A DNA stretch of 13,670 nucleotides, taken from contig JAHLWH010000057.1 in assembly GCA_019058015.1 (NCBI GenBank), forward strand, positions 1-13,670, in the 5' to 3' direction. Positions 1 to 13,670 of this stretch are shown piece after piece. The stretch is from Promethearchaeota archaeon (GTDB lineage Archaea > Asgardarchaeota > Lokiarchaeia > Sigyniarchaeales > SOKP01). The notes under the pieces were generated by a model. It saw nothing but the letters and a program-made list of their open reading frames with translations, had not been told where the DNA came from and ran no database searches. A program made the position numbers and the translations under genes. The first letter of the stretch is position 1, and each line of letters begins with the position of its first letter.

Positions 1-1698
1 ACTTGGGGCGATGCTAATAGTGGTGGGACATTTGGTCCTGAAATTAAAAAATGTGGGTATGATGCAATTTTATTTAAAGGAATTGCTGAAAAGCCCATAT
101 ATATTACAATAATTGGTGATGATAAACAAATTCATGATGCATCAGATATTTGGGGTAAAGATGTTATTGAAGCTGAAGAAAAATTAAAAAAGAAATATGG
201 TAAATATATTAAAACAGCTGGAATAGGACAAGCTGGAGAGAAACTTTCTCTAATTTCAGGAATTGTCAATGATAAAGGTCGTATTGCCGCAAGATCCGGA
301 ATCGGCGCAATAATGGGTTCAAAAAAGCTTAAAATGCTTGTTCTAAAAGGAGATAAACAAATACAATTAGCCAACAAAGAAGATTTAGTAAGAGTTGTTT
401 CTGAATATAATAGTAAAAAAAAGACAGAACCAGGAAAATTCATGAAAGCAATACTTAAAATGGCACCTGGAATGCCAAAATTATTAAGACGGTTTAATAT
501 ATCCTTAAAGGGACCTCCAAAAATGATAACTCAAGTTTATCATATTTTCGGTACAAGTGCTGGAAATTTAATCAGTGCTGAAGTTGGAGATTCGCCCGTT
601 AAGAATTGGAGTGGTATAGGACAATTTGACTTTCCACCAGATGTATCTAAAGAATTATCTACTGTGATAATAAATAGTTATAAACAGAAAGACTATGGAT
701 GTTTGACTTGTCCAGTTCAATGCGGAGGTGTATTAAAAGTTCCTGAACTTGGAATAGATGAGACTTATCTTCCAGAATACGAAACATGTTGCGCTTTTGG
801 GACTCTCTTACTTAATAATGATCTCATGTCAATAATCATACTTAATGAATTATGCAATCGTGCGGGTATAGATACGATATCTACTGGTGTAACTGTAGCT
901 TTTGCTATAGAATGTTTTGAAAATGGTATAATAACTACTGATGATACTAATGGATTAGAATTAAGGTGGGGAAAGTCAGATTCTATTGTAGAACTAGTTA
1001 AAATGATAATAAACCGAGAAGGTATCGGAGATATTTTGGCTGATGGGTGTAAAAAAGCTTCAGAAAAAATTGGAACAGGGAGTCAAAAATTTGCAATGCA
1101 TTCATTAGGACAAGAAATTGCAATGCATGATCCGAAATATTTTGAATCTCTTGGTTATACCTACGCTTATGACCCCACACCAGGAAGACATACAGCAGCA
1201 AGTATAGATTTTATGGATATTGGTCCTATTGGGAAATTTATGAAGGGCTTTTCGTTACCTAAAAAGTGGAAGAAAAATAAGAAATCAAAATATAAGGGAC
1301 AAATGATGGTTACCGGTATTCGACAATTTATAGATTGTTTAGGATTATGTATGTTTGCGACCTTGTTTGGCAATTATCCTGTTAGAGAAATAATTCGATC
1401 TGTTACTGGTTGGGATTTATCAGTTGAGGAAATAATAAAAACGGGTTTAAGAATTCAAACATTAAGACAATCCTTTACAATTCGAGAGGGGGTTAAGATT
1501 GCTCAAAATGATTTACCATCAAGGGTAATTGGAGATCCACCTTTTGAAAAAGGACCTAATAAAGGGGTAACTGTAAATTATAGAGATTTTTACAAGGGTG
1601 TTTGCAAAGAAATGGGTTGGAATCCGGAAAATGGATATCCTTTAAGAGAAACTTTAAGAGAATTGAATTTGGATTATGTGATAAAAGATATATATTAA
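1..1698 (+). CDS. aor: Tungsten-dependent aldehyde:ferredoxin oxidoreductase family protein (5'-partial; runs in from the left edge)
   Basis: Frame 1 is open from base 1 (TWGDANSGGTFGPEIKKCGYDAILFKG...IGQAGE...GRIAARSGIGAIMGSKKLK), so the ATG at 313 is internal. AOR motifs: CxxCxxxC (CLTCPVQC), PEYET, GIDTIS, DxxGxC (DCLGLC, fourth cluster Cys), C-terminal MGWNPENGYP..ETLRELNL. Confidence 0.93.
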   Translation, partial: TWGDANSGGTFGPEIKKCGYDAILFKGIAEKPIYITIIGDDKQIHDASDIWGKDVIEAEEKLKKKYGKYIKTAGIGQAGEKLSLISGIVNDKGRIAARSGIGAIMGSKKLKMLVLKGDKQIQLANKEDLVRVVSEYNSKKKTEPGKFMKAILKMAPGMPKLLRRFNISLKGPPKMITQVYHIFGTSAGNLISAEVGDSPVKNWSGIGQFDFPPDVSKELSTVIINSYKQKDYGCLTCPVQCGGVLKVPELGIDETYLPEYETCCAFGTLLLNNDLMSIIILNELCNRAGIDTISTGVTVAFAIECFENGIITTDDTNGLELRWGKSDSIVELVKMIINREGIGDILADGCKKASEKIGTGSQKFAMHSLGQEIAMHDPKYFESLGYTYAYDPTPGRHTAASIDFMDIGPIGKFMKGFSLPKKWKKNKKSKYKGQMMVTGIRQFIDCLGLCMFATLFGNYPVREIIRSVTGWDLSVEEIIKTGLRIQTLRQSFTIREGVKIAQNDLPSRVIGDPPFEKGPNKGVTVNYRDFYKGVCKEMGWNPENGYPLRETLRELNLDYVIKDIY

Positions 1699-1715
1699 CT
1701 TATTCTGTTAATTTG

Positions 1716-1732
1716 AAAAATAAAGAAAAAAA
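1716..1732 (-). terminator. Oligo-T tract, putative archaeal terminator of the GTPase/longin-wHTH unit
   Basis: The minus strand reads TTTTTTTCTTTATTTTT a few nt after the stop at 1740, in the 41-bp gap between convergent genes. Confidence 0.45.
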
Positions 1733-1739
1733 TTTATGT

Positions 1740-2297
1740 TTACACACCCCAATAAACTGTTCTACCAACTTTTCCTGTTCTTTTAATTTGTTCTGCAGTC
1801 TCAAGATCATTCATGATTTTCCATATTTGGGAATTACTTAAATTGAAATATTTCCTTAAATCAGGAGTCGCCATTTCCATTTCTTTTAAAAGTACATTAA
1901 TAAGTCTTTTAATTTCATCGATATCTTCATATTTGGGCTTTTCCTCAATATCAGTAGAATCATCTTCATCCTCAGATTCCATTTTTATAATTATTTTATC
2001 AGCAATTTTATTTAATTCTTTGATGTTTCTCTCAATACCTTGAGGTTTCATAAATAAACAACATAATTCTAACCCTCTTGGAAAAGCGACAATATAAAAA
2101 TCATCATATAATATTGCTCGAGGTTTTTTTCCATCATTACCTCCACGAAATGCTAGATAGAAATTCGTTGCAAAATCTTCTAAATTAATGTTTGGGGTTC
2201 CTTTGTTAATACTTGCTTTCCATTTTAAGAATGGTCCATTAATCATGTCAAAACCGACTAAAGCAGCACTAACTATTTCATCTTCTACAAACTTCAT
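1740..2297 (-). CDS. uDENN/longin-like domain + acidic linker + C-terminal winged helix-turn-helix protein
   Basis: The N-terminus IVSAALVGFDMINGPFLKW fits the uDENN-longin beta1-beta2 pattern (hydrophobic strand-F[D/H]xxxGP), followed by a helix, three strands and a helix. Acidic linker ESEDEDDSTDIEE. Residues ~126-185 (EIKRLINVLLKEMEMATPDLRKYFNLSNSQIWKIMNDLETAEQIKRTGKVGRTVYW) follow a wHTH pattern. The domain calls are by-eye inference. Confidence 0.7.
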   Translation of the reverse strand: MKFVEDEIVSAALVGFDMINGPFLKWKASINKGTPNINLEDFATNFYLAFRGGNDGKKPRAILYDDFYIVAFPRGLELCCLFMKPQGIERNIKELNKIADKIIIKMESEDEDDSTDIEEKPKYEDIDEIKRLINVLLKEMEMATPDLRKYFNLSNSQIWKIMNDLETAEQIKRTGKVGRTVYWGV

Positions 2298-2846
2298 TTA
2301 TTCTCTTTTCCTCCTTCTAATTGAAGCTTTATCTAATTCATTTTTAATTATATTTATTAACCTAGCTCTTTCGCTAAAATTAATAGCGGTACAAGCAAAA
2401 GTTTTAACTCTAAGTACTTTTTCAACTTTATCTACTTCTATATGTTCCGGTAAATCTTGTTTATTTGCGAGAGCAATGATTTGGCTTTCACTTCCTATAT
2501 TTTTATTAGCTAATTTTATTAGTTTTTTTGTATTTAGAACATTTTGTGGAGTAGAATCAGTCACTATAAAGATGAGATCACTCCCAAATATGAAATTTTT
2601 TAAATTCATTTTCAGATACGCTTTTTGACCTCCAAAATCCCATAAACTAATAATATTTTCTCCAAATTTAACAGTTTTAAAATCAAGTCCTTGTGTTGGC
2701 AAATACAATTTATTTATTGTTTTTTCAGTTAAGAGTTTAAGAATTGTTGTTTTACCGACAGCTGGATATCCGATAAAAGAAATTTTTATTGGCATCTCAT
2801 TTAATTTACGAACTCTTTGAACTTTAAATGAGTTAAAGTTTATCAT
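2298..2846 (-). CDS. Ras-superfamily small GTPase, Arf/Rag-related (Asgard type)
   Basis: G1 GYPAVGKT, G2 PTQG, G3 WDFGGQ, G4 ANKQD, G5 CTA. A GAGG ribosome-binding-like motif lies ~7 nt upstream of the ATG at 2846. An alternative start is the ATG at 2795 (MPIK). Confidence 0.93.
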   Translation of the reverse strand: MINFNSFKVQRVRKLNEMPIKISFIGYPAVGKTTILKLLTEKTINKLYLPTQGLDFKTVKFGENIISLWDFGGQKAYLKMNLKNFIFGSDLIFIVTDSTPQNVLNTKKLIKLANKNIGSESQIIALANKQDLPEHIEVDKVEKVLRVKTFACTAINFSERARLINIIKNELDKASIRRRKRE

Positions 2847-3069
2847 ACAAAAGCCTCAAAATATGTGAATAAATTAATTAAGATCTAAACTATTAATTTG
2901 CGTAATATCCAAGTAATATGATATTCTAAGAAGTAATTTTTTTTCCAACATTATATCTTTATAAAATAGATTCTTCCAAATCCTTTAATAATAAAAAGAA
3001 AGAAGTTATTGATATTATTGATAAAATAATGGGAATTAAAAAAAACATTAATTACAAAGTGATGTCTTA

Positions 3070-4272
3070 ATGAAGAATATTGAAAATTTGTTGAAAACAG
3101 CATTGGAAAAAGGAGAAGGTATCCTCCGTTTGTTTCCCAACTGGGTACCACGGTCATTTACCATTCCTGGAAGGCGTTTAAAATTGCATCCTAATGATTA
3201 TTATTCATTTGGGGCTCATAGGGGAGGGATAGATGAAAGATGGTTTGCATCAACAATAAAAGCTGACAATGGACCTGAAACCCTACCAGACGAAGGATTA
3301 AGTTATATTTATATAGAAGATGGCACTCAAAAAGAAAAAATTCTATTAAAAGATGCAATTGAATGTATGGGCGATAAGATTCTAGGAAAAAAAGTAATGG
3401 AAAAATTCGGTGGATTGACAATGTTTTCAAAATTTTTTGACAATATGGAACCAATACCACTTCACTTACATCAAAGTGATAAGCTTGCGGCTTTCGTTGG
3501 GCAAAAGGGGAAATCTGAAGGTTATTATTTTCCCAAACAACTAAATAATCATTCTGGATACTTTCCCTATACTTACTTTGGTTTAAATCCAGGAACAACT
3601 AAAGATGACGTGAAGTTATGCTTGAAAAATTGGGATGAAGGTGATAATGGGATATTAAATTTTTCAAAGGCTTATAAGCTCAAACTTGGAACTGGATGGG
3701 ATGTCCCTCCAGGAGTTTTGCATGCACCGGGATCACTTCTCACTTATGAACCTCAAAAAGCATCAGACGTATTTGCAATGTTTCAATCTTTAGCAGGGGA
3801 TAAATTTATTCCAAAAGATCTACTTGTGAAAGATGTACCTGAAGAATATAAAAAAGATCTTGATTACATAGTTGATATGATAGATTGGGAAATAAATCTA
3901 GATCCAGATTTTCATAAGAATAGATTTTTAGAACCGAAACCAGTTAAGCCTATTGAAGAAATGAGAGAAGAAGGATATGAGGAATATTGGATTGTATATA
4001 ATTCTGACTTCTTTGCTGCAAAAGAATTAACAATACAGCCAAAAAAATCTATTACTATAAAAGAAAAAGGTGCATATGGATTAATCGTGATTCAAGGGCA
4101 TGGGAAATTTGGAAAATTGGATATTGAATCACCTGCAATAATTAAGTTCGGACAGATGACTAATGATGAATTATTTATTACTTTTAATGCTGCCCTTAGA
4201 GGAATTGAAATAAAAAATGAAAGCAATTCTGATGATCTAGTAATGCTTAAACACATAGGATCTGAAGCTTAA
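3070..4272 (+). CDS. Type I phosphomannose-isomerase-like cupin metalloprotein (substrate uncertain)
   Basis: KFFDNMEPIPLHLH, KSEGYY, VPPGVLHAPG and YEPQKASDV parallel the PMI motifs KxLD..LSxQxH, KxE, GxxHA and EIQxxSD. A GTGAT RBS-like motif precedes the ATG. Confidence 0.7.
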   Translation: MKNIENLLKTALEKGEGILRLFPNWVPRSFTIPGRRLKLHPNDYYSFGAHRGGIDERWFASTIKADNGPETLPDEGLSYIYIEDGTQKEKILLKDAIECMGDKILGKKVMEKFGGLTMFSKFFDNMEPIPLHLHQSDKLAAFVGQKGKSEGYYFPKQLNNHSGYFPYTYFGLNPGTTKDDVKLCLKNWDEGDNGILNFSKAYKLKLGTGWDVPPGVLHAPGSLLTYEPQKASDVFAMFQSLAGDKFIPKDLLVKDVPEEYKKDLDYIVDMIDWEINLDPDFHKNRFLEPKPVKPIEEMREEGYEEYWIVYNSDFFAAKELTIQPKKSITIKEKGAYGLIVIQGHGKFGKLDIESPAIIKFGQMTNDELFITFNAALRGIEIKNESNSDDLVMLKHIGSEA

Positions 4273-4318
4273 TTCTTTTGAAATATAAAATTTATGCACT
4301 TTAATTTTAGAAAATATC

Positions 4319-4900
4319 TTATTTTAATTTTACGACAACAGTATTCGAAGTATTTTGCATAATTCTAAGTCTATTTCCCTTAATATCATAGTTCGCAATA
4401 TACCCAACAAATAAATCAATTAAAAACAGTAAGTTGCTTCCTCTTAAAAGGTTATTAATTGCATACTTTTCCTTGGATGTTGTTTCAAATGAATTCGCAT
4501 CTACTGTTCTTAAGCCTAAAATCCTCTTACCAATAGTCTGTCCTTTGTTATATGTTTCAAATAACCAATAATAACTAAAACCAACAATCCAATTGAATAA
4601 ATCCATAAAGTCTGGAACAAATAAGTCTAATAAAGTCTGTTTTCTGTTTATTGGGAATGGTAAAGAGATTAAAAATCCAATTATGGTGATAAACATCATA
4701 TCAACAATAAATGCAATTAAACGCTCCCAAGATCTTGCAAAAATTACTCCTTTTCCAGGAATTCTAGCGCTTTTTTTAAGGTCAATATAAGATTCTTCTT
4801 TCTTTCGACGAATTCTTTCTTCTTCAGTTATTTCATAACCACAAGCACAAAATTGGACTCCAATACCTAATTGTGCTCCACATTTTGGGCAATATTTCAT
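4319..4900 (-). CDS. Zinc-ribbon + RDD family membrane protein (paralog 2)
   Basis: CPKCG...FCACG ribbon; WERLIAFIVD, KGQTIGKRILGLRTVD and C-terminal TVVV are RDD hallmarks. The ATG at 4900 (MKYCPKCG) is preferred over the TTG at 4909. Confidence 0.88.
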   Translation of the reverse strand: MKYCPKCGAQLGIGVQFCACGYEITEEERIRRKKEESYIDLKKSARIPGKGVIFARSWERLIAFIVDMMFITIIGFLISLPFPINRKQTLLDLFVPDFMDLFNWIVGFSYYWLFETYNKGQTIGKRILGLRTVDANSFETTSKEKYAINNLLRGSNLLFLIDLFVGYIANYDIKGNRLRIMQNTSNTVVVKLK

Positions 4901-5059
4901 AAATTCCAATCTATATTTAAAATTCTATGAATAATTCAATTTTAATTGAAATATGAGTTTTATCATATTCTATTTTCTTTAATTAAAACCATTGATCCAT
5001 CATTGTTATGACGATAATTAATATTATATCTCAAATTAAGATATTTTTTTGAAACTAAG

Positions 5060-5089
5060 AAATAAAAATAAAAAAAAACGAAAAAAGAA
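5060..5089 (-). terminator. Long oligo-T tract, putative terminator after RDD paralog 1
   Basis: The minus strand has consecutive T6, T9 and T5 runs starting just after the stop at 5095, suggesting the two RDD genes are transcribed separately. Confidence 0.55.
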
Positions 5090-5094
5090 TAGTT

Positions 5095-5667
5095 TTAACT
5101 TGTTTTAATAACAACTGTTCTTGAAATGTTCTGTAAAATTCTTAAACGATTATTTTCTTCACCAGAATTTACTAAAAAGCCTATGATCAAATCTAATAAA
5201 AGAAAAATAGTACCTCTCGCGAGATTATTGACGACATATTGACCTGGTTTTGCAACATCGAGTGATTCTTCATCGACTGTCCTTAAATGTAACAAAATTT
5301 TTCCTATAGTTTGCCCTTTATTAAAAGCTTCAAAAATAAAAAAGTATCCAAATCCAATCACCCAATCTATTAAATCATTTATAAACAAATAGTCAATAGA
5401 AAAAACAAAACTCCACCGGAATGGTATAAACAAGCTTATAAGCAAAATAACTATAATATCAACAATATACGCAAAGAAACGTTCCCAAAACCCAGCATAA
5501 ATATGTGGACCTTTTATAATTTCAGCAGGTTTTTGAGTAGTAACTTGAGGTTGAGATACTTCCGCCTTCGATATCTCTCTAGCATTTATTTCATTTCCAC
5601 AGGAGGGACAAGATTTAACACCAGGTTCTAATTTTCCACCACAAGTTGGACAAAAATTGATAGACAT
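5095..5667 (-). CDS. Zinc-ribbon + RDD family membrane protein (paralog 1)
   Basis: CPTCG...CPSCG ribbon; YAGFWERFFAYIVD, KGQTIGKILLHLRTVD, TVVIK. Confidence 0.9.
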   Translation of the reverse strand: MSINFCPTCGGKLEPGVKSCPSCGNEINAREISKAEVSQPQVTTQKPAEIIKGPHIYAGFWERFFAYIVDIIVILLISLFIPFRWSFVFSIDYLFINDLIDWVIGFGYFFIFEAFNKGQTIGKILLHLRTVDEESLDVAKPGQYVVNNLARGTIFLLLDLIIGFLVNSGEENNRLRILQNISRTVVIKTS

Positions 5668-5800
5668 ATTTAATCAATTCTAAATATTTTAGTTATAATG
5701 GATTAATTTTTATATTTTTTATATATTGCACTTTTTAATTAAAACTATCTATTAGTTATTAAAATAAAGTTTTTAAAATGCTTATTATTAGTAAAAAATT

Positions 5801-6841
5801 ATGATTAAAAAAATTCCAATCTCAATTGTGGGAGTAGGCAATTTATGTTCCAGCTTAGTTCAAGGATTATACAGTGAAGGAACGGGTTTACTTCATAAAA
5901 ATTTAGCCGGTTTTAGATTTTCTGATATTGAAATAGTATCATCTATCGATATTGATTCAAGAAAGATTGGAAAGGATCTTTCTGAAGCAATTTTTGCTGA
6001 GCCCAATGTTGCCTTAAAATTTAATTTGGATATCCCTAAAACAAATGTAATTGTGAAAATGGGACATGTCTTAGACGGAATCGCAGATGAGGTAAAGGAA
6101 GATATTGAAATATCTGATAAACAACCAGATGATATTTATGAGGAATTTAAAAAAGGGTTAATTGTTTTATGCTTATTACCATCTGGAGCAGATAAAGCTG
6201 TAAAATTTTATGCTGATAAAGCCTTAAAAGCAAATTGTGGATTTATAAATGCCACTCCAACAAATTTAGCTAACGATTTAGAATATAGTAAGAAATTTTT
6301 GGAGAAAAAACTCCCCCTCATTGGAGACGACATTCAAGACCAAATGGGAGCAACTATATTGCATAAATTAATCCTTAAATTAATGAAAGAAAGAGGAATA
6401 ATTATTGATGAGTCATACGCGTTGGATGTTGGGGGTGGTTTAGAAAGTAAAAACTCATTATTTAGATCTCGGGATATAAAAAGAGCAATAAAATCGAGGT
6501 CAGTAACTGAAGCATTGCATATTGATGCACCTATTATAGCAGGAACTTCGGATTATGTTGAACATATGAATAATAGTAGAAACACTTTCATATGGATTAA
6601 AGGGAAATATTTCAATTCAGCCCCAATCATGATTGATATGAAGATAACAACGGAGGATGGTCCAAATGGAGGATCAGTTTTGTTTGATGTAATAAGAGCA
6701 ACATATGTTGCAATGCTTCAGGGGTCTTCTGGGGTTATCAAGCCTATTTGTGCTTTTGGTTTTAAGAATCCACCAGGTCAAGTTAAAGATCCAAGTGTAG
6801 CAAGTAGAGAATTATCTGAATTTATTTTGGGTAATATTTAA
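5801..6841 (+). CDS. ino1: myo-Inositol-1-phosphate synthase family protein (divergent active site)
   Basis: Rossmann GVGNLCSSLVQG, DIDSRKIGKDLSEAIFAEPN, LPSGA, FINATP, IGDD, SDYV, DGPN, FKNPP. Confidence 0.85.
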   Translation: MIKKIPISIVGVGNLCSSLVQGLYSEGTGLLHKNLAGFRFSDIEIVSSIDIDSRKIGKDLSEAIFAEPNVALKFNLDIPKTNVIVKMGHVLDGIADEVKEDIEISDKQPDDIYEEFKKGLIVLCLLPSGADKAVKFYADKALKANCGFINATPTNLANDLEYSKKFLEKKLPLIGDDIQDQMGATILHKLILKLMKERGIIIDESYALDVGGGLESKNSLFRSRDIKRAIKSRSVTEALHIDAPIIAGTSDYVEHMNNSRNTFIWIKGKYFNSAPIMIDMKITTEDGPNGGSVLFDVIRATYVAMLQGSSGVIKPICAFGFKNPPGQVKDPSVASRELSEFILGNI

Positions 6842-6873
6842 AATTTGAGAGCTTTCAACAATAAAATTAAATT

Positions 6874-8004
6874 TTATTTACTATTGTTACTATTTAAAGA
6901 AGGAACAAATTCAAACGTTTTAAGCAATATTTTTTTTGCATCATCAAAAGCAGATGTATCAATTGCATTATTTAAATCCATATAAGATTTTAATTCATTT
7001 TTATATTTTTCAATAAACTGCTCCATGAATGACTTCGTAGCTTTTTTGAAAACATTGGTACTCTTATTTACTATGAGGAGAATAGCAAATCCATACTCTC
7101 TATTATATTCTAAGATTATCTCTCGATCTTTTAATTTAATCGAAGTAATCTGGTCTTTTGCAGTGCTGAATTCTGAGAGAATATGATTTATTCCGATAAG
7201 GACAGCCCCCTTTATAGTTGATGTTTCTTTTCTCTCGTTTTTTTCAAAATCATAACTAAATAACATTATCCCCGATTTATGAAAAACAACAAATTCATAA
7301 GCAATATTGAAGAATGATAAATACTTAGTATAATATTTTAAAAAAACATAGTAGCTAAAAAGAACTCCAATCCAATTAAACAAAAGAGAAAAACTTGAAA
7401 ATAAATACGGATTTAAATATTGTAGAATTAGATAAAATGTTATCATTAAAATAATCATTGTATTAGGAATTATATAATACACCCTTAATCTTCTCTTTTT
7501 CGTTTTAAATTTTAATACAGATAAAAAATTATAATTAAGTTTTAGAAGAATAAAAATTAAGAGAATGATTCCGCTAATAAGGTAATTAAAACTTATTTCT
7601 ACTACATAGTATGAAAGTGAATCAATTATTAATGTAGAAATAATGAAAGTTTCATCCATAAGAGTAAGTGAAATAATGTAGCCACTTAGGGTAAAAATTA
7701 TTAAATTAAGAAAAATATTAAATCTTTTAAGATCTAAAGTTTCAATTCCAATAACTATCAAAACTCCTGAACATATAAGTAAATTTGAACTAATTCTCCA
7801 TAACAACAGAGTAAAATCTACTTTAAAAATTGCTATTAAACTAAGATATTTAAGTAAAGGATAGATAATTCCATAATTAATAAGAAAAATAGTTGATATA
7901 AAGAGGAATTTAATTTTTAAATTATGAAATCTCTTTATGTGAGAATAAATTGTTATAACTGAGATAACTATACTTAAAATTACTCCGATTAAATAAATGA
8001 TCAT
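6874..8004 (-). CDS. Seven-TM membrane domain fused to a C-terminal cytoplasmic longin domain
   Basis: About 7 hydrophobic ~20-aa segments in residues 1-225. Residues ~233-368 (EFVVFHKSGIMLFSYDF / AVLIGINHILSEF / ITSIKLKDREIILE / FAILLIV / FMEQFIEKY / FDDAKKIL) follow the longin beta-beta-alpha-beta-beta-beta-alpha-alpha pattern. Confidence 0.78.
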   Translation of the reverse strand: MIIYLIGVILSIVISVITIYSHIKRFHNLKIKFLFISTIFLINYGIIYPLLKYLSLIAIFKVDFTLLLWRISSNLLICSGVLIVIGIETLDLKRFNIFLNLIIFTLSGYIISLTLMDETFIISTLIIDSLSYYVVEISFNYLISGIILLIFILLKLNYNFLSVLKFKTKKRRLRVYYIIPNTMIILMITFYLILQYLNPYLFSSFSLLFNWIGVLFSYYVFLKYYTKYLSFFNIAYEFVVFHKSGIMLFSYDFEKNERKETSTIKGAVLIGINHILSEFSTAKDQITSIKLKDREIILEYNREYGFAILLIVNKSTNVFKKATKSFMEQFIEKYKNELKSYMDLNNAIDTSAFDDAKKILLKTFEFVPSLNSNNSK

Positions 8005-8162
8005 CGTTCTTTACGTAATTGGGCTATTTTACAATATTATGATAGATTTCTATATATTAATAAGATATATCATATATTTAAATAAATGCATTTTAAATTT
8101 TTTTATAGTTTTAATCATTTTTAGAAAAAATTAATAAAAATAATAAGATTTTCGAAATATTA

Positions 8163-8199
8163 TTAACTTTTATATAAAAAAAAAGTTAAATTTTTAACT
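8163..8199. promoter_or_regulatory. TATA-like box enclosed by overlapping inverted repeats in a divergent promoter region
   Basis: TTAACTTTT (8163-8171) and AAAAGTTAA (8181-8189) flank TTTTATATAAA. AGTTAAA (8184-8190) and TTTAACT (8193-8199) form a second dyad. Confidence 0.3.
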
Positions 8200-8238
8200 A
8201 AATTGTGAATTGAATTAAAGAAAGCAAAAATACTTATA

Positions 8239-9183
8239 ATGAAAGTAGTAATTACAGGAATATCATCCTTTCTTGCATCAGAATTAGTTCCAATAATTGA
8301 ATCTGATAAAGAGATTACTGAGATTTTAGGATTAGATATAATAGAACCAAAATATACTTCACAAAAGATTAAATTCATTAAAAAAGACATTCGAGATAAG
8401 AGAATTTTTAAAGATTTAAGAGGATATGACGCAATCATACATTTAGCATTTATTGTAAGCCCAATATCTAATAGGAGAGAGATGTATTCTATAAATTTAG
8501 ATGGAAGTAAAAATGTTTTCAATTGCGCAATAAAAGCTGGCATAAAAAAGATTATTCATGCAAGCTCAGTTGCTGCCTATGGTGCCTTCCCAGAAAATCC
8601 GATTCCTATTACTGAAGAACACCCAATTAGATTAATGAAAAAACATTTTTATTATAATGAAACAAAATATTATGTAGAAAAATATCTGGATAAGCTTTCA
8701 AAAAAATACCCAGATGTAATTATTACACGAATTCGTCCCAGTATTTTTTTAGGCCCCTATATTAACAATTTTTTTCGAACCTATTTTCTCGGCAACAAGA
8801 TCTATACATTTTCACCTGATGTTTTAGTACAATTAGCTTGGATTGATGATGTTGCAGAAGCATTTTATTTGGTTTTAAAGAAAGACGTCTCTGGAGCATT
8901 TAATATTGGAGCCGATAATCCTATAAATTCAAGGGAGATTGCTGAAAAATTAGGAATTAATTGCGTTAAATTACCATATCATTTTGGATTATTATTAATA
9001 AACGCTTTATATAAACTTCGTATTCTAAGATCTTTAACACCTGGTTGGATTCGTGCTACAAGATATCCAATAATTGTTGATTCAAGCAAGGCAAAACAAG
9101 TTTTGGGCTGGACTCCAAAATATGATACTTATGGATCTGTAAAAGCATTATATGATGCTCTAAAAGAGAGTAGAGAAATTTGA
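8239..9183 (+). CDS. Extended SDR NAD-dependent epimerase/dehydratase
   Basis: MKVVITG Rossmann start, IIHLAF, NLDGSKNV, SSVAAYG (catalytic Ser), YNETK (YxxxK), RPSIFLGP, DDVAEA, GAFNIG, LGWTPKY. Confidence 0.9.
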   Translation: MKVVITGISSFLASELVPIIESDKEITEILGLDIIEPKYTSQKIKFIKKDIRDKRIFKDLRGYDAIIHLAFIVSPISNRREMYSINLDGSKNVFNCAIKAGIKKIIHASSVAAYGAFPENPIPITEEHPIRLMKKHFYYNETKYYVEKYLDKLSKKYPDVIITRIRPSIFLGPYINNFFRTYFLGNKIYTFSPDVLVQLAWIDDVAEAFYLVLKKDVSGAFNIGADNPINSREIAEKLGINCVKLPYHFGLLLINALYKLRILRSLTPGWIRATRYPIIVDSSKAKQVLGWTPKYDTYGSVKALYDALKESREI

Positions 9184-9188
9184 TAATT

Positions 9189-10250
9189 TTATTTTGATTT
9201 CTTTTTTCCTTCGAGGATGGCCATTCCCATTTCAATCACCTTGTTAAAGGGCTCCTCTCCGTCTTCTCTTAATTGTAAAGTTATCGCCTCCTCAGGACAA
9301 ACTCTATAACATAGTCCGCAACCAAGGCATTTATCCCTATTTACAATAGCAATATCTTCTAAATCAATTGCTCCAACTGGGCATCGGTCTACGCAGAATC
9401 CACAACTAATACATTTCTCAGTATCAATGATGGATTCAAATATTGCATTTAAAAATCTGTGTTTATCATAACCAAATTTAATTATTCCTTTCATAGTAGC
9501 GCAACAACATGGACAACAATTACAAATATTGGATAAATGTTTAGAGTTTGCACTAGCATGAATTAAACCGGCATTATCTGCTTCTTCTAAAATCTTTATA
9601 GCCTCCTCTGCTGTTATTTCTCTTCCTATATTATTTTCAATATAATATTCTGCAGCGACTCCGAAGCTAAGGCATGTTTCTATTGGATATTCACAGCCCT
9701 CCCCATTTAGTCTAGATTCCTTCCGGCAAATGCAATCCGTCACAGAAATTATTCGCGCTTTTTTAATGCTTTCTTTGAGATGGTGATATGGATAAAGTAT
9801 AGTATCAGTGGATATAGTTTCATCTACGGGAATTACCTTAAAACCTGGCACATTACTTGCCCCCATTTCATTTACGTAAGCAGTATCGTAGTATTCCTTA
9901 TAGAGTTTAGCAAGCTCCTTATCGATTTTTTCAACAGAATATTCATATAAACCGATCATGAAAGGTGCAGCATTATAAAGCGTTTTTCCTTCCCGATGAA
10001 CTCGAAAGATAAGCCCTTTTTTCGCCATATGCTCTAATTTATCTTCCAATTCTCTTTCTTCCAGTTTATATCGTTGCGTTATTCGAGCAACTGTTTCTGG
10101 AATGTGTGTCAATAGTGGAACCAATTTTGCTTCATCCTCTGTGAAAAGTTTCTTTAATATCTTAATTTCTATTCCAGATGATGTTTTAGGAAATCCCAAT
10201 GGGAATTGATCTAAAAATTCTTGTAACTTCTCATAAACTTCTTCATTCAA
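9189..10250 (-). CDS. Cys-rich Fe-S protein: N-terminal wHTH-like region, CxCR/CNCC domain and a 2x[4Fe-4S] ferredoxin domain
   Basis: DCICRK, CEYPIETC, ICNCCPCCC, CISCGFCVDRCP, CLGCGLCYRVCP. The TTG start at 10250 overlaps the upstream gene by 8 nt and is preceded by GGTGT. Confidence 0.88.
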   Translation of the reverse strand: MNEEVYEKLQEFLDQFPLGFPKTSSGIEIKILKKLFTEDEAKLVPLLTHIPETVARITQRYKLEERELEDKLEHMAKKGLIFRVHREGKTLYNAAPFMIGLYEYSVEKIDKELAKLYKEYYDTAYVNEMGASNVPGFKVIPVDETISTDTILYPYHHLKESIKKARIISVTDCICRKESRLNGEGCEYPIETCLSFGVAAEYYIENNIGREITAEEAIKILEEADNAGLIHASANSKHLSNICNCCPCCCATMKGIIKFGYDKHRFLNAIFESIIDTEKCISCGFCVDRCPVGAIDLEDIAIVNRDKCLGCGLCYRVCPEEAITLQLREDGEEPFNKVIEMGMAILEGKKKSK

Positions 10251-12057
10251 GCTTTTTTACACCGCGTTTATATTGTAGATTCATACTAAATTTAATGAAA
10301 AAATCAAAAATAAAATTTCCAATAATTAAAAGTGGAAAAAAATACGCAGTTAATAAGCTTCCTAATAAAGTTAAATCTCTGACTTTCCTTTTTTCATGAA
10401 TTATTTTAGGGAATAATTTAGTTATCAATTTTTTTTCATTTTTCTCACTAACTATACCCTTTCGGTTGAATCCTTGTTGATATTGATTTATTCTAACTAA
10501 AGAGCGGAAATCTCTATAAATCCAAATAAACCAGCCAGCTAAATAATCTTTTGAATTAAGTGTGCGAATTGTGTATTCAATGGTGAGAACTTGTTTTTCC
10601 TCGCTAAATTTAACTTGTTTATTCCAACCCGGTTTAAAACCATATTTTGCTCCAGCCCCAAATTCTGTAAATATCCAGGGTTTTTTTGGTGATAAAGACC
10701 TCATAGCATCTGCCATAAAATTAAGTTGATTAACTCTTGCATAATACCATCCAAGATAAACATTTACTGCAGCAATATCAGCCTTCCTATGAGTTAAATC
10801 AATGAAGAACTTATATGAAACATAGGTTACAAGTCTTGTATTATCATACATTTTTACCCATTCCATTAAACGCCTTATAAATCGTGAGCAGTTTGGTTGC
10901 TGTATTGGAATTTCGTTTCCGACACTCCACCAGATAACACTTGGATGATTATAATCCCTCTCAATTAATCTTTTTAACATTTTCGCAGCTAACTTAAATG
11001 TTTTTGGATTTCCGAAATCACAAAAGCCCCAAAGAGGAATTTCCTCTAAAATTAATATCCCTAACTTATCAGCGGCATCCATTAATTTTTCATCATGAGA
11101 ATAATGTGCAGTTCTTAAAGCATTGAATCCGAAAGATTTCATATTCTTAATATCTTCTTCACGCTTTTCATACGTAATAGTTCTCCCGTATGGCATATAC
11201 TCTTCATGTAATGAAGCACCCTTAATTTTAATTCGTTGCTTATTCAAATAGAGATATATTCCCTTAGTTTCAATTTGCCGAATTCCAAATTTAGTTTGAA
11301 AAAGAATTTCTCTTTCATTCCCACTATCTATTGATTTAATTATCAATTTATATAATTTTGGTGAATCTGGAGACCATAACTTAGGATTATTTATCGGGAT
11401 TGCTATATTATCTTGATTTGGTTTTGTTCCAGAAACTATTGGCATATTATCATTTCTTTTATCTGGTTCAATTATTGACCATTTGAAATTTAAAGAACCT
11501 TTAATTCTATATGAAATCCGAATTAGAGACTTTTTTCGTGAAGGTAGTAGTGTCTTAATTCTTACTTTCTCTAATCGATTTTTCTTTAAAATAATTAAAT
11601 TGACATCCCGATAAATACCGCCCCAATTAAACCAATCAAAAAATAGACTGGGAATTCCATCTTTTCTTCTAATATTATCTACTCTAACTGTTAAAAAATT
11701 AGATTTAGCTTTTAATAGAGTTGAGTTTTTTATTTTAAATCTAAAAGGAAGAAAACCTCCTTCATTATCGCCAAGAAATTCATTGTTAAGCCACACTTCA
11801 GTAAAATAATTACTTCCCTCGAATTTAATAAAAATATCCGTATCTTTATTCTGTTGATCAAAATCAAATAAAATATAATGCCAAAAAATACCCTCAAAAT
11901 TCTCGTACTCTTTCAAAGTGTTAAAACTAATAGGGATTTTTATTTTAGTTAGATTTTTTTTAGATTCAAAAGAGTTATAATTAAACCAATTTTCTTTCTT
12001 ACCAATATCTTTTTTATCAACTTCACAAAACCAATTCCCATTTAAAGAGATTTTCAT
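10243..12057 (-). CDS. Glycoside hydrolase family 2, beta-glucuronidase-like
   Basis: SLNGNW, DWFNWGGIYRDV, PKLWSP, FGIR, RTAHY, RDYNHPSVIWWSVGNE (acid/base Glu), NVYLGWY, FTEFGA (nucleophile Glu), and the NxKG motif NRKG (10456-10467) typical of uronic-acid-specific GH2 enzymes. Confidence 0.9.
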   Translation of the reverse strand: MKISLNGNWFCEVDKKDIGKKENWFNYNSFESKKNLTKIKIPISFNTLKEYENFEGIFWHYILFDFDQQNKDTDIFIKFEGSNYFTEVWLNNEFLGDNEGGFLPFRFKIKNSTLLKAKSNFLTVRVDNIRRKDGIPSLFFDWFNWGGIYRDVNLIILKKNRLEKVRIKTLLPSRKKSLIRISYRIKGSLNFKWSIIEPDKRNDNMPIVSGTKPNQDNIAIPINNPKLWSPDSPKLYKLIIKSIDSGNEREILFQTKFGIRQIETKGIYLYLNKQRIKIKGASLHEEYMPYGRTITYEKREEDIKNMKSFGFNALRTAHYSHDEKLMDAADKLGILILEEIPLWGFCDFGNPKTFKLAAKMLKRLIERDYNHPSVIWWSVGNEIPIQQPNCSRFIRRLMEWVKMYDNTRLVTYVSYKFFIDLTHRKADIAAVNVYLGWYYARVNQLNFMADAMRSLSPKKPWIFTEFGAGAKYGFKPGWNKQVKFSEEKQVLTIEYTIRTLNSKDYLAGWFIWIYRDFRSLVRINQYQQGFNRKGIVSEKNEKKLITKLFPKIIHEKRKVRDLTLLGSLLTAYFFPLLIIGNFIFDFFIKFSMNLQYKRGVKKLE

Positions 12058-12111
12058 AATTTATTTATCATCATGAATTTTTCTATATTTATATTTAAGA
12101 AGTAATATGAG

Positions 12112-12213
12112 GGCCCTCTGCGGGAATCGAACCCGCCTCTAGGGATGACTCTGTAATTCTGAAGTAGAAATTACTTCACAGTCCCCAATACTAACCGCTG
12201 TACCAAGAGGGCC
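12112..12213 (-). tRNA. trnH: tRNA-His(GTG) with encoded G-1 and a 29-nt intron at the canonical 37/38 position (intron 12147-12175); CCA not encoded
   Basis: The minus strand folds as G(-1) GCCCTCT TG GTAC AGCGGTTA GTAT T GGGGA CT GTG A [intron] A TCCCT AGAG GCGGG TTCGATT CCCGC AGAGGGC C73. G-1:C73 is the His identity pair. The exon-intron junctions show bulge-helix-bulge geometry. Confidence 0.92.
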
Positions 12214-12344
12214 ATAACTAATAACTACTACATTTAAGAATGTATTCTACTTAAAAAATTTTTTTGGAATGAATAGAAGAATCACTGTATTTATCTTATT
12301 AAATTTAAGAGAAATATACTTAAAAAAAACTTGCGTGAATATTT

Positions 12345-12359
12345 AAAGAAAAAAGAAAA
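12345..12359 (-). terminator. Oligo-T tract, putative terminator after the kce-like gene
   Basis: The minus strand reads TTTTCTTTTTTCTTT directly after the stop at 12363. Confidence 0.45.
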
Positions 12360-12362
12360 TTA

Positions 12363-13220
12363 TTAATATTTCCTTGGAAGTTGCATAATTTCTTTGGCTT
12401 CATCCAAATCTGCGATTTCCCGATCCAATTCTTTTGCTAGGCGAACACATTTTTCTACCATTTGCTTATTACTTTCTGCAAGGACTCCTCTCGAAATATA
12501 GATATTGTCTTCGAGACCGCATCTTACATTACCTCCTAAAAGGATAGCTTGAGTAATTAACCGCCATTGATGTCTGCCAATCCCAGTGACACACCATGTA
12601 GCCCTTGGAATCTTTTCGATAAGATTCTTCATATACATGAGATTTTCCATTGTCGGAGCCGCTCCTCCTAAAACGCCCAGTACAATATTATAATTTAAAG
12701 GATCATGAAAATGTCCTTGTTCTCTTACAAAGAGGATATTATTTATTTGTCCAACATCATATACTTCAAATTCAGGGGCTGTACCCGCTTCTTTAAATGT
12801 ATCTCCAAAATGTCCTAAAGTTTCAAATTTATTTGGAAATATAATTTCCTTTAAAATTGTTGTTCCTCTTGCAAGAGCAAAATTCATTGATCCAGAATTT
12901 AGGGACCCCATCTCAGGTTTGCATATAGGAATATGTCCCAATCTTTGCTCAAGAGTCATGCCAGGAGCCCCCCCAGTAGATAAACATAGAAGTACATCAC
13001 ATTTTTCTTTTACTCTTTTGACAATGTCCTGAAACACTTCAGGAGAAGCAGTTGGTGTGCCATCAGGCATTCTAGCATGTATATGGACCATTGTCGCCCC
13101 TGCTTCATAACAAGCATAAGCGTTATTTGCTAATTCTTCCGGAGTATGTGGAAGCGCAGGATTCTGTGCTCGAGAAGTGAGTGATCCTGTTAATGCGCAA
13201 GTTATAACTAATTTTTCCAA
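12363..13220 (-). CDS. kce: 3-keto-5-aminohexanoate cleavage enzyme / beta-keto acid cleavage enzyme (BKACE, DUF849) family
   Basis: KLVITCALTG, NPALPHTPEE, zinc-binding HIHAR, STGG, PEMGSLNSGSMNF, PEFEVYD, GGNVRCGLEDN. The start is likely the TTG at 13220, because the ORF-track GTG at 13229 lies inside the AGGTGAT Shine-Dalgarno motif (13225-13231). The substrate subgroup cannot be determined here. Confidence 0.88.
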   Translation of the reverse strand: MEKLVITCALTGSLTSRAQNPALPHTPEELANNAYACYEAGATMVHIHARMPDGTPTASPEVFQDIVKRVKEKCDVLLCLSTGGAPGMTLEQRLGHIPICKPEMGSLNSGSMNFALARGTTILKEIIFPNKFETLGHFGDTFKEAGTAPEFEVYDVGQINNILFVREQGHFHDPLNYNIVLGVLGGAAPTMENLMYMKNLIEKIPRATWCVTGIGRHQWRLITQAILLGGNVRCGLEDNIYISRGVLAESNKQMVEKCVRLAKELDREIADLDEAKEIMQLPRKY

Positions 13221-13446
13221 TATTATCACCTTAAAAATTTTTTGATTTAAATTATGATTTTTTTTATTAGATTTATTTATATAACATTGTTTATCCTAAA
13301 AAATCTATATAATTTTTTGAAATTTAAGAAATTAGAATGATTTGTATTTCTATGATTTCTGCAATTTGGACAAATCTGGAATTTTCTTTTAAAGAAGAAG
13401 AAAATACCATCTGCACATGCATATATTTATACGTTTTTCAATTTCG

Positions 13447-13487
13447 AATTATACAAAGATATAAATCTAATTATACAAGGATATAAA
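13447..13487. repeat. Two 19-bp direct repeats (18/19 identical, 22-bp period), each with TTATA-N6-TATAA dyad symmetry
   Basis: AATTATACAAAGATATAAA (13447-13465) and AATTATACAAGGATATAAA (13469-13487). Confidence 0.75.
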
Positions 13488-13670
13488 CTTGTGAAATATG
13501 ATAGAAACTTAATGCAGAGAGTTGAAAATGAAAAAATTTCTGCAAATTCACGATTTATTCAAATTATAAATCTTCGCCCACTTTCTAAATCTCAATGCGT
13601 TCGATTATGAGCTGTATTTGAACATATAAAGAAAAACGTATAGAGAGATGATGCATTACTGTTAAAAATG

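Follow-up and report, generated by a model that had tools for sequence, protein, structure and literature searches.

An operon for an Arf-like GTPase and a predicted longin-winged-helix partner in Asgard archaea, with a candidate operator upstream

Which GTPase does an archaeal longin protein serve, what is the output of such a switch, and is the chemistry of longins that work as GTPase-activating proteins (GAPs) older than the eukaryotes? Asgard genomes hold dozens of small GTPases and of longin or roadblock proteins, which are hard to pair, and the locus described here makes these questions testable because it offers a fixed pair together with a DNA site. It lies at positions 1740-2846 of a 13,670-nucleotide (nt) stretch of a Promethearchaeota archaeon genome (assembly GCA_019058015.1, contig JAHLWH010000057.1, positions 1 to 13,670), which as a whole is called the window below. 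At this locus, the gene for an Arf-like GTPase is followed directly by the gene for a partner protein with a predicted longin-like N-terminal domain, an acidic linker and a predicted C-terminal winged helix. A preliminary description of the window, made from the letters alone, had read the two genes as a self-contained unit and had proposed either a stripped-down archaeal analogue of eukaryotic longin regulators or a transcription factor controlled by the nucleotide state of a GTPase.

Conservation of the gene pair and of a DNA element ahead of it

Both genes are on the minus strand. Reading of the open reading frames (ORFs) and of the sequence itself showed that the TAA of the GTPase gene (2298-2846, 182 amino acids (aa)) at 2300-2298 abuts the ATG of the partner gene (1740-2297, 185 aa) at 2297-2295 with no gap, and this junction (2295-2300), like every other feature of the preliminary description, was found where it had been placed. 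GTDB species genomes were then scanned for relatives, which gave 128 relatives and 80 loci that were kept, each with 6 kb on either side; the adjacency counts cover relatives at 58-95% identity. In all testable loci (79/79) both genes were on one strand, with the GTPase gene immediately upstream of the partner gene; the remaining locus, L067, could not be assessed, as its sequence extends only 51 nt upstream. The distance from stop to start was -14 nt in 3 loci, -11 nt in 25, -4 nt in 41, -1 nt in 2, 0 nt in 3, +1 to +3 nt in 4 and +16 nt in 1, which means that the junction in the orthologous loci is mostly an overlap of 4 or 11 nt. Since the reading frames overlap by 1-14 nt in 71 of the 79 loci, the arrangement suggests that the two genes are translationally coupled. 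The proposal of a self-contained two-gene unit, for which conservation across Asgard genomes was to be checked, is thus borne out by an order kept in every testable locus and by overlapping stop and start in most of them. In the window and in L001-L003 the otherwise conserved neighbours are gone on both sides and the pair is retained. The phylum labels given by the submitters (Loki/Promethearchaeota, Thor, Hermod, Hod, Odin) may overstate the spread of the sampled genomes, which may truly amount to one class. We regard it as very probable that the two genes form a functional unit.

The preliminary description had also named the 223-nt divergent intergenic region on the 5' side of the GTPase gene (2847-3069) as the first place where DNA binding should be sought, and a conserved, operon-specific repeat element was located there. 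This element, at 2891-2919 on the minus strand, consists of three 7-bp units (2919-2913, 2908-2902 and 2897-2891) with a spacing of 11 bp and the consensus ATAWTAY, the third unit being richer in AT; the units are direct repeats and form no hairpin. The element was first noticed as a shared block in printed upstream regions and then turned into an iteratively refined 32-column matrix, in which information is high in columns 3-9, 14-20 and 25-31 and low between them. The match in the window (2890-2921) scored 29 bits and ends 43 nt ahead of the GTPase ATG. Among the 78 testable upstream regions, 71 had a match of at least 14 bits, every one of them on the coding strand and most of them ending about 51 nt before the start codon, and in the seven misses (L006, L012, L013, L023, L031, L052 and L062) inspection by eye reveals two units of similar sequence at that distance. 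No other match of at least 14 bits was present on either strand of the 823,716 nt of loci and window, barring one reverse match in L008 that overlaps the site itself. Since the matrix had been trained on the very sites it detects, two-fold cross-validation was carried out, in which the best match of the whole 12-kb held-out locus was at the expected place in 28 of 38 loci in one fold and in 37 of 38 in the other. Analysis of 55 non-redundant sequences showed a mean pairwise identity of 0.70 in the element against 0.34 in a 40-nt flank, and a relative entropy of 0.97 against 0.08 bits per position.

The orthologous loci have a second, weaker conserved block, about 17-28 nt downstream of the repeats; it is AT-rich and centred about 28 nt before the GTPase ATG, and the block at 2867-2881 (minus strand) matches it in the window. 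This block resembles a TATA box for a transcript with a short leader or none, and the repeat element sits upstream of it; in archaea, a site upstream of the TATA box more often accompanies activation. The repeat element is a candidate operator for the winged helix of the partner, and the chances that the winged helix binds the repeats seem to us about even. One of the loci, L015 (DATKTW010000082.1), is titled as a Nanopelagicaceae bacterium, yet it has the Asgard gene pair and the repeat element, so this contig is likely mis-binned.

The GTPase and the domains of its partner

The search of the GTPase against Pfam gave Arf as the best family (68.4 bits with a cut-off of 22.3; E 7e-19), followed by Roc and Ras, and the nearest PDB sequences were Arl3, Arl2 and Arf1 (E 2.9e-12 to 1.4e-11). 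G26, G31, K32, T33, T51, W69, D70, G73, Q74 and N128-D131 are invariant across 26 GTPase sequences, and the motifs are a P-loop, the switch-I Thr51, an Arf-style switch II WDxGGQ with Gln74, and NKQD. The protein is strongly basic (isoelectric point 10, net charge +15) with a polybasic C-terminal tail. Two PDB chains named 'Arf GTPase', 8oul (E 2e-10) and 8ouk (E 3.8e-9), which we take to be ArfR structures, were no closer to it than the eukaryotic Arls, and to judge from these matches it is named Arf-like here rather than ArfR. The defining feature of Arf and ArfR proteins is an N-terminal amphipathic helix that is released upon GTP binding (10.1101/2024.02.28.582541). In the window protein 19 residues with a net charge of +3 precede strand 1, and in most orthologues there are about 9-10; since so few residues are available in most of the family, the presence of such a helix is doubtful. 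Identity with the ArvA/DipA GTPases was also considered and was ruled out by motifs, as the protein has DFGGQ and not DTPG and the partner has no DUF2073 match.

The partner matched no Pfam family above cut-off, and PDB sequence and profile searches with it gave only insignificant matches (E at least 0.09). Its own family comprised 490 relatives at E up to 1e-3 in 90% clusters and 29 representatives at 50% clustering, many of which were fragments, and all named members came from Asgard metagenome-assembled genomes (MAGs). Distant members of the family are at 33-48% identity. In a protein atlas the partner fell into its own Promethearchaeota clusters only, one of them automatically named 'putative winged helix-turn-helix transcriptional regulator'. 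AlphaFold2 (AF2) models were of medium confidence: the full partner, modelled from a 28-sequence alignment, had a predicted local distance difference test score (pLDDT) of 77, and the isolated N-terminal domain had a pLDDT of 75 and a predicted template modelling score (pTM) of 0.68.

Residues 1-109 (1971-2297, minus strand) are predicted to form a longin-like domain on the basis of the AF2 order β-β-α-β-β-β-α, Foldseek and alignments, with strands at residues 8-17, 21-29, 61-64, 67-74 and 77-83 and helices at 39-51 and 88-110. Only seven residues precede strand 1 and there is no N-terminal helix, so the order is that of a longin and not of a roadblock. All Foldseek matches to this domain in the PDB were within the longin/roadblock superfamily, the best at E 2.5e-3 to 2e-2 with TMq 0.45-0.63, and on the longin side they included delta/zeta-COP, AP sigma/mu, DENND1A/B, Ykt6, VAMP7, the Lokiarchaeal longin 8yqg, CPLANE and one GATOR1 entry. 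On these models the longin/roadblock fold class is supported, and no specific kinship to NPRL2, FLCN or SMCR8 can be claimed because the matches are weak and mixed with roadblocks. The earlier proposal of a longin of just that kind therefore holds for the secondary-structure order and the superfamily and is not borne out for the closeness: LAMTOR scored equally over the same E range, and Foldseek showed no preference for the expected NPRL2/FLCN/SMCR8-type chains over other longins or roadblocks.

The preliminary description had noted a uDENN-like FDxxxGP stretch at the N-terminus. F16, D17, G21 and P22 are the same in each of the 28 aligned family members (28/28), G21-P22 are also invariant in a set of 30 sequences (30/30), and they form the start of β2, which begins at residue 21 in both AF2 models. 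A GP dipeptide at the end of the β1-β2 loop or at the start of β2 has been described for C9orf72, SMCR8, FLCN and NPRL2 and for one class of Asgard longins, whereas longins that are not GAPs, for instance adaptins, TRAPP and DENND proteins, lack it; C9orf72 has an essential W33-D34 ahead of G38-P39 (PMC12290439). The spacing of F16-D17 and G21-P22 is identical to that of C9orf72, which means that the stretch matches the GP motif of the GAP longins both in position and in spacing. In the α1-β3 loop, R51, G52, G53, K57, K58, P59 and R60 are invariant or nearly so in the core family; across 26 core orthologues R51 is invariant and R60 is conserved to at least 90%. Because this loop would sit on the same edge of the sheet as the GP motif, R51 and R60 are candidates for an arginine finger in the models.

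The acidic linker (residues 110-125; 1923-1970, minus strand) was assigned by charge and predicted disorder, with a net charge of -7 in the window protein, a mean of -7.0 over 26 orthologues, and a pLDDT below 50 for residues 110-123. The winged helix (residues 126-185 and the stop codon; 1740-1922, minus strand) was assigned by AF2 topology, conservation, charge and the Pfam matches of the family, and the model has helices at 126-139, 144-151 and 155-167 followed by a β-hairpin wing with strands at 172-177 and 180-184. N155, I158 and W159 in helix 3 and R173, K176, G178, R179 and W183 in the wing are invariant, and the C-terminal 60 aa are basic, with a mean net charge of +5.6. Among 28 family members the best Pfam E-values were 7.3e-8 for HTH_11, 1.1e-7 for the ArsR-type HTH_5 and 1.3e-7 for HTH_DeoR, HTH_27 was matched by 15 of the 28, and members also matched the DNA-binding families GntR, TrmB and MarR. 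The fold matches of the full model included ZitR, AdcR and SqrR, with weak matches to CodY, CRP and CprK (template modelling score (TM) 0.2-0.25 for CodY and CRP). Since the family matches helix-turn-helix (HTH) families, the folds of ZitR, AdcR and SqrR are recovered, and the charge is basic with invariant polar or basic residues in helix 3 and the wing, the C-terminal domain is, as far as such comparisons can tell, a winged helix of the ordinary prokaryotic DNA-binding kind. The acidic linker and wHTH-like C-terminus of the preliminary description are supported by the same topology, charge, fold matches and family matches.

Both domains are modular. Among P0256, P0267, P0260, P0266, P0258 and P0265, the N-terminal domain with the GP motif occurs alone with a polybasic tail or with another C-terminal domain, and the winged helix occurs behind other N-termini, one of them a membrane/zinc-ribbon one. 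L005 has, about 270 nt downstream of its full pair, a second, truncated copy of the N-terminal domain (3503-3916, plus strand), which covers residues 1-138 at 53% identity.

A possible mechanism, its rivals and the surrounding genes

The coupling of the two genes, the predicted fold class with its motifs and the conserved, operon-specific DNA element are demonstrated. In the picture that we favour, the GTPase would have a dedicated longin protein as its GAP-type regulator or sensor, which would double as an autoregulatory transcription factor, and we put the chance that this overall picture is right as stated a little below even. What we infer from these observations is binding between the two proteins, activity as a GAP or sensor, binding to DNA and whether regulation is positive or negative. 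The locus would be a conserved, translationally coupled operon of Lokiarchaeia-type Asgard archaea that produces an Arf-like GTPase with a catalytic Gln together with its cognate regulator or sensor. The longin domain, probably dimeric, would dock on the switch face of the GTPase, where it would stimulate GTP hydrolysis or read the nucleotide state; that the longin domain binds the GTPase is, in our judgement, likely. Shortly upstream of the TATA-like box, the three 7-bp units follow each other at a distance of one helical turn, and the winged helices would bind them head-to-tail, so that the state of the GTPase would feed directly into transcription of its own operon and perhaps of further genes. 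For the acidic linker, two roles are conceivable: masking of the winged helix, or binding of the very basic GTPase. A bolder form of the proposal, which we find rather unlikely, is a one-step switch: a GP-motif longin, covalently tethered to a winged helix, would read the nucleotide state of the Arf-like GTPase, and GTP/GDP cycling would thereby switch a transcription factor on a phased triple-repeat operator. The pair would then be a precursor, in prokaryotic style, of the longin GAPs FLCN, GATOR1 and C9orf72 and would provide the first assigned client GTPase for the Asgard GP-motif longins.

Several results weigh against the favoured picture. Foldseek against the PDB gave 0 matches to the N-terminal domain at E up to 1e-3, roadblock chains (LAMTOR and MK-D1 roadblock2) scored as well as longins, FLCN, SMCR8 and C9orf72 chains were absent from the top 50 matches listed, and no longin of Pfam or the PDB matched the domain significantly in sequence. 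R51 and R60 are substituted in several distant family members, and the window protein's own Pfam matches in the winged helix were sub-threshold (HTH_34, 18.2 against 27 bits). No fused GTPase-partner protein was found when longer forms were sought among 1020 candidates, which is weak evidence. As for the element, the matrix was trained on the sites that it finds, fold 0 of the cross-validation missed 10 of 38 sites, and some other factor could bind the repeats. The same training on control regions also yielded motifs, which were coding sequence of conserved neighbour genes; unlike them, the repeat element is in non-coding DNA and has a periodicity of 11 bp rather than 3 bp. Other neighbours are conserved too: of the 80 loci, 72 have a 269-aa gene, 58 a DUF2070 membrane protein and 56 an RsmB/F methyltransferase. 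Because the wider neighbourhood is partly conserved, adjacency alone partly reflects the relatedness of the genomes. A prediction of the complex of the GTPase with partner residues 1-112, GTP and Mg scored 0.02 against a mark of 0.32 and weighs neither way on binding.

Four other explanations were weighed against this evidence. The partner could be a regulator of the GTPase and nothing else, with the longin as GAP or guanine nucleotide exchange factor (GEF) and the winged helix as a protein-protein or dimerisation module like the C-termini of NPRL2/NPRL3, in which case the upstream element would be the site of another transcription factor or an unusual promoter. The operon coupling and the GP-motif longin fit such a module equally well, the sub-threshold HTH matches of the window protein agree with it, and Asgard families with an NPRL2-like longin and a small NPRL2-type C-terminal domain have been reported (10.1101/2020.10.19.343400). 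It does not account for members of the family matching HTH_11, ArsR, DeoR, GntR, TrmB and MarR with E down to 1e-7, for the basic C-terminal domain with its invariant polar and basic residues in helix 3 and wing, or for phased, operon-specific direct repeats conserved exactly where an autoregulator would bind, and we consider it improbable, if worth keeping in mind. Somewhat harder to credit is a one-component transcription factor whose N-terminal domain senses a small molecule or another protein, with the GTPase as a co-transcribed, regulated product that acts elsewhere, for example at the membrane. The weak resemblance of the full model to the sensor plus winged-helix regulators CodY, CRP and CprK would agree with that, as would a very basic GTPase whose polybasic ends could bind membranes and the occurrence of each domain with other partners, the N-terminal domain alone or with other C-termini and the winged helix with other N-termini. 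However, the CodY and CRP matches reach a TM of only 0.2-0.25, longin and roadblock domains are GTPase-binding platforms (MglB, Ragulator, TRAPP, DENN, SRX), and the stop-start overlap seen in 71 of 79 loci suggests that the two proteins are made together in stoichiometric amounts; moreover, the invariant motif is the one tied to the GAP activity of C9orf72/SMCR8 on Arf1 (PMC12290439).

The phased direct repeats ahead of an operon with an NTPase gene and a DNA-binding adaptor gene also recall a DNA-anchored positioning system, in which the winged helix would hold the repeats as a centromere-like site and the GTPase would be its switch or motor partner. The partition loci parMRC and TubZRC have a comparable architecture of NTPase gene, adaptor gene and upstream iterons. 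Archaeal Dip/Arv GTPase systems position the division machinery (10.64898/2026.05.19.726155). The site here has only three repeat units and adjoins a TATA-like box, a layout more often seen with operators. The DTPG motif that DipA has is missing from the GTPase, and the partner does not belong to DUF2073. No Arf-like GTPase is known to polymerise, and we think a positioning system very unlikely. It would be just as surprising if the two genes had no functional link and adjoined merely through the relatedness and shared synteny of the sampled genomes. Other neighbours are indeed kept in 56-72 of 80 loci, and, as the sequences are all 58-69% identical, the true spread of the genomes may be one class despite several phylum labels. 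Against this, the pair is present in 79 of 79 loci where the other neighbours reach 72, 58 and 56 of 80, it survives rearrangement of both flanks, and its frames overlap by 1-14 nt in 71 of 79 loci.

The surroundings of the pair were also analysed. After the partner stop, oligo-T runs at 1716-1732 (minus strand; T7 at 1732-1726, T3, and T5 at 1720-1716, by direct reading) occupy most of a 41-nt gap, beyond which a convergent aldehyde:ferredoxin oxidoreductase (AFOR) gene ends at 1698, and they are plausibly an archaeal termination signal. Divergent from the GTPase operon is a 400-aa ORF (3070-4272, plus strand) without a Pfam family, which is kept only in L001-L003; since the repeat element lies 149-180 nt upstream of its start, this ORF could be under the same regulator as the operon in the window clade. 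The 269-aa gene of most other loci (L024, 6580-7389, minus strand; equivalents in 72 of 80 loci) is convergent to the partner gene and ends 20-70 nt after it; it has 51-95% identity, its sole Pfam match is a weak one to DUF3786 (E 0.0021), and it is absent from the window. Together with the DUF2070 and RsmB/F methyltransferase genes it makes up a wider conserved neighbourhood that was lost in the window clade. A known defence system was ruled out, with PADLOC giving weak partial matches only. An Rfam scan of the locus gave no match, and a scan for bacterial sigma-70 promoters and terminators, which is not relevant to archaea, stayed at shuffle level. Farther along the window, on the minus strand, a 376-aa multi-pass membrane protein without a Pfam family (6874-8004) has in its C-terminal 150 aa a weak atlas lead (0.81) to Roadblock/LAMTOR2/Fuz_longin clusters and may be a second GTPase-platform protein, and a 101-nt tRNA (12112-12212), detected by Rfam (47.5 bits) and missed by ARAGORN, is probably an intron-containing archaeal tRNA. 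Two tandem paralogous membrane proteins with zinc-ribbon and RDD domains (4319-4909 and 5095-5667, minus strand) share about 42% mutual identity.

Comparison with known systems

The literature searches, which did not cover supplementary family lists, found no description of the gene pair, of a GTPase-coupled longin-winged-helix regulator or of the repeat element, and if the winged helix does bind its site under GTPase control, this would be a coupling of GTPase to transcription not found in the literature searched. The preliminary description went too far, however, in calling this type of system one not known to have been characterised, since Asgard NPRL2-like longins, alone or fused to signalling domains including two-component ones, had already been reported; one such family, whose small C-terminal domain is of the NPRL2 type, was seen in 'most Thor and a few Loki MAGs' (10.1101/2020.10.19.343400). 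GP-motif longins of the FLCN/SMCR8 type have been described from Asgard archaea as well, both on their own and in fusion with signalling domains, with the question whether their clients are ArfR or Rag GTPases (PMC12290439). These are the same kind of domain in the same organisms, and the available parts of both texts describe no operon with an Arf-like GTPase, no DNA-binding winged helix and no cis element for them (10.1101/2020.10.19.343400, PMC12290439). The ArfR preprint makes no mention of gene neighbourhoods or operons (10.1101/2024.02.28.582541), and in MK-D1 the GTPase genes are generally not in operons with longin or roadblock regulators (PMC10933270).

With the eukaryotic longin GAPs, namely C9orf72-SMCR8 and, on Rag GTPases, FLCN-FNIP and the NPRL2-NPRL3 pair of GATOR1, the partner has in common the GP motif at the start of β2, and with C9orf72 also the aromatic-Asp pair five residues before it. 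NPRL2 and NPRL3 carry winged-helix-like C-terminal regions. C9orf72-SMCR8 has GAP activity on Arf1 (PMC12290439), and by comparison the expected client here would be an Arf-like GTPase with a catalytic Gln. Unlike these proteins, the partner is only 185 aa long, matches no DENN, TINI or large C-terminal module in Pfam, is probably a homodimer where they are heterodimers, ends in a winged helix of the prokaryotic DNA-binding type, and is encoded in an operon with its GTPase; it has no significant sequence match to them and no preferential fold match.

Two prokaryotic GTPase systems have a similar gene arrangement. MglA and MglB, a small GTPase and a small regulator of the roadblock/longin superfamily, are encoded side by side, and the MglB dimer docks on the switch face (PMC10933270), whereas MglB is a roadblock with an N-terminal helix and without a DNA-binding domain, and MglA is not Arf-like. 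In Euryarchaeota the Arf-resembling GTPase ArvA/DipA has its partner gene directly downstream in 93% of genomes (PMC10927574), and DipB stimulates its GTPase (10.64898/2026.05.19.726155). The ArvA/DipA-ArvB/DipB-ArvC/DipC set thus resembles our pair as an archaeal Arf-like GTPase with a partner gene directly downstream, but DipA has a DTPG Walker B and a DUF2073 (SepF-like) partner, and the GTPase here has WDxGGQ and a partner with predicted longin and winged-helix domains.

The geometry of the repeats, together with a winged helix tethered by a linker, recalls the PhoB/OmpR regulators. Their winged helices bind head-to-tail on 7-bp direct repeats with 4-bp spacers, that is with a period of 11 bp, and they have flexible linkers and a dimerising switch domain. 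In PhoB/OmpR this switch domain is a phosphorylated receiver, whose place in the operon described here would be taken by a longin domain read out by a GTPase. Seen against all of these systems, the Asgard NPRL2-like and GP-motif longins were already known, and what this locus adds is the tight coupling to an Arf-like GTPase, a winged helix of the DNA-binding type and a candidate operator.

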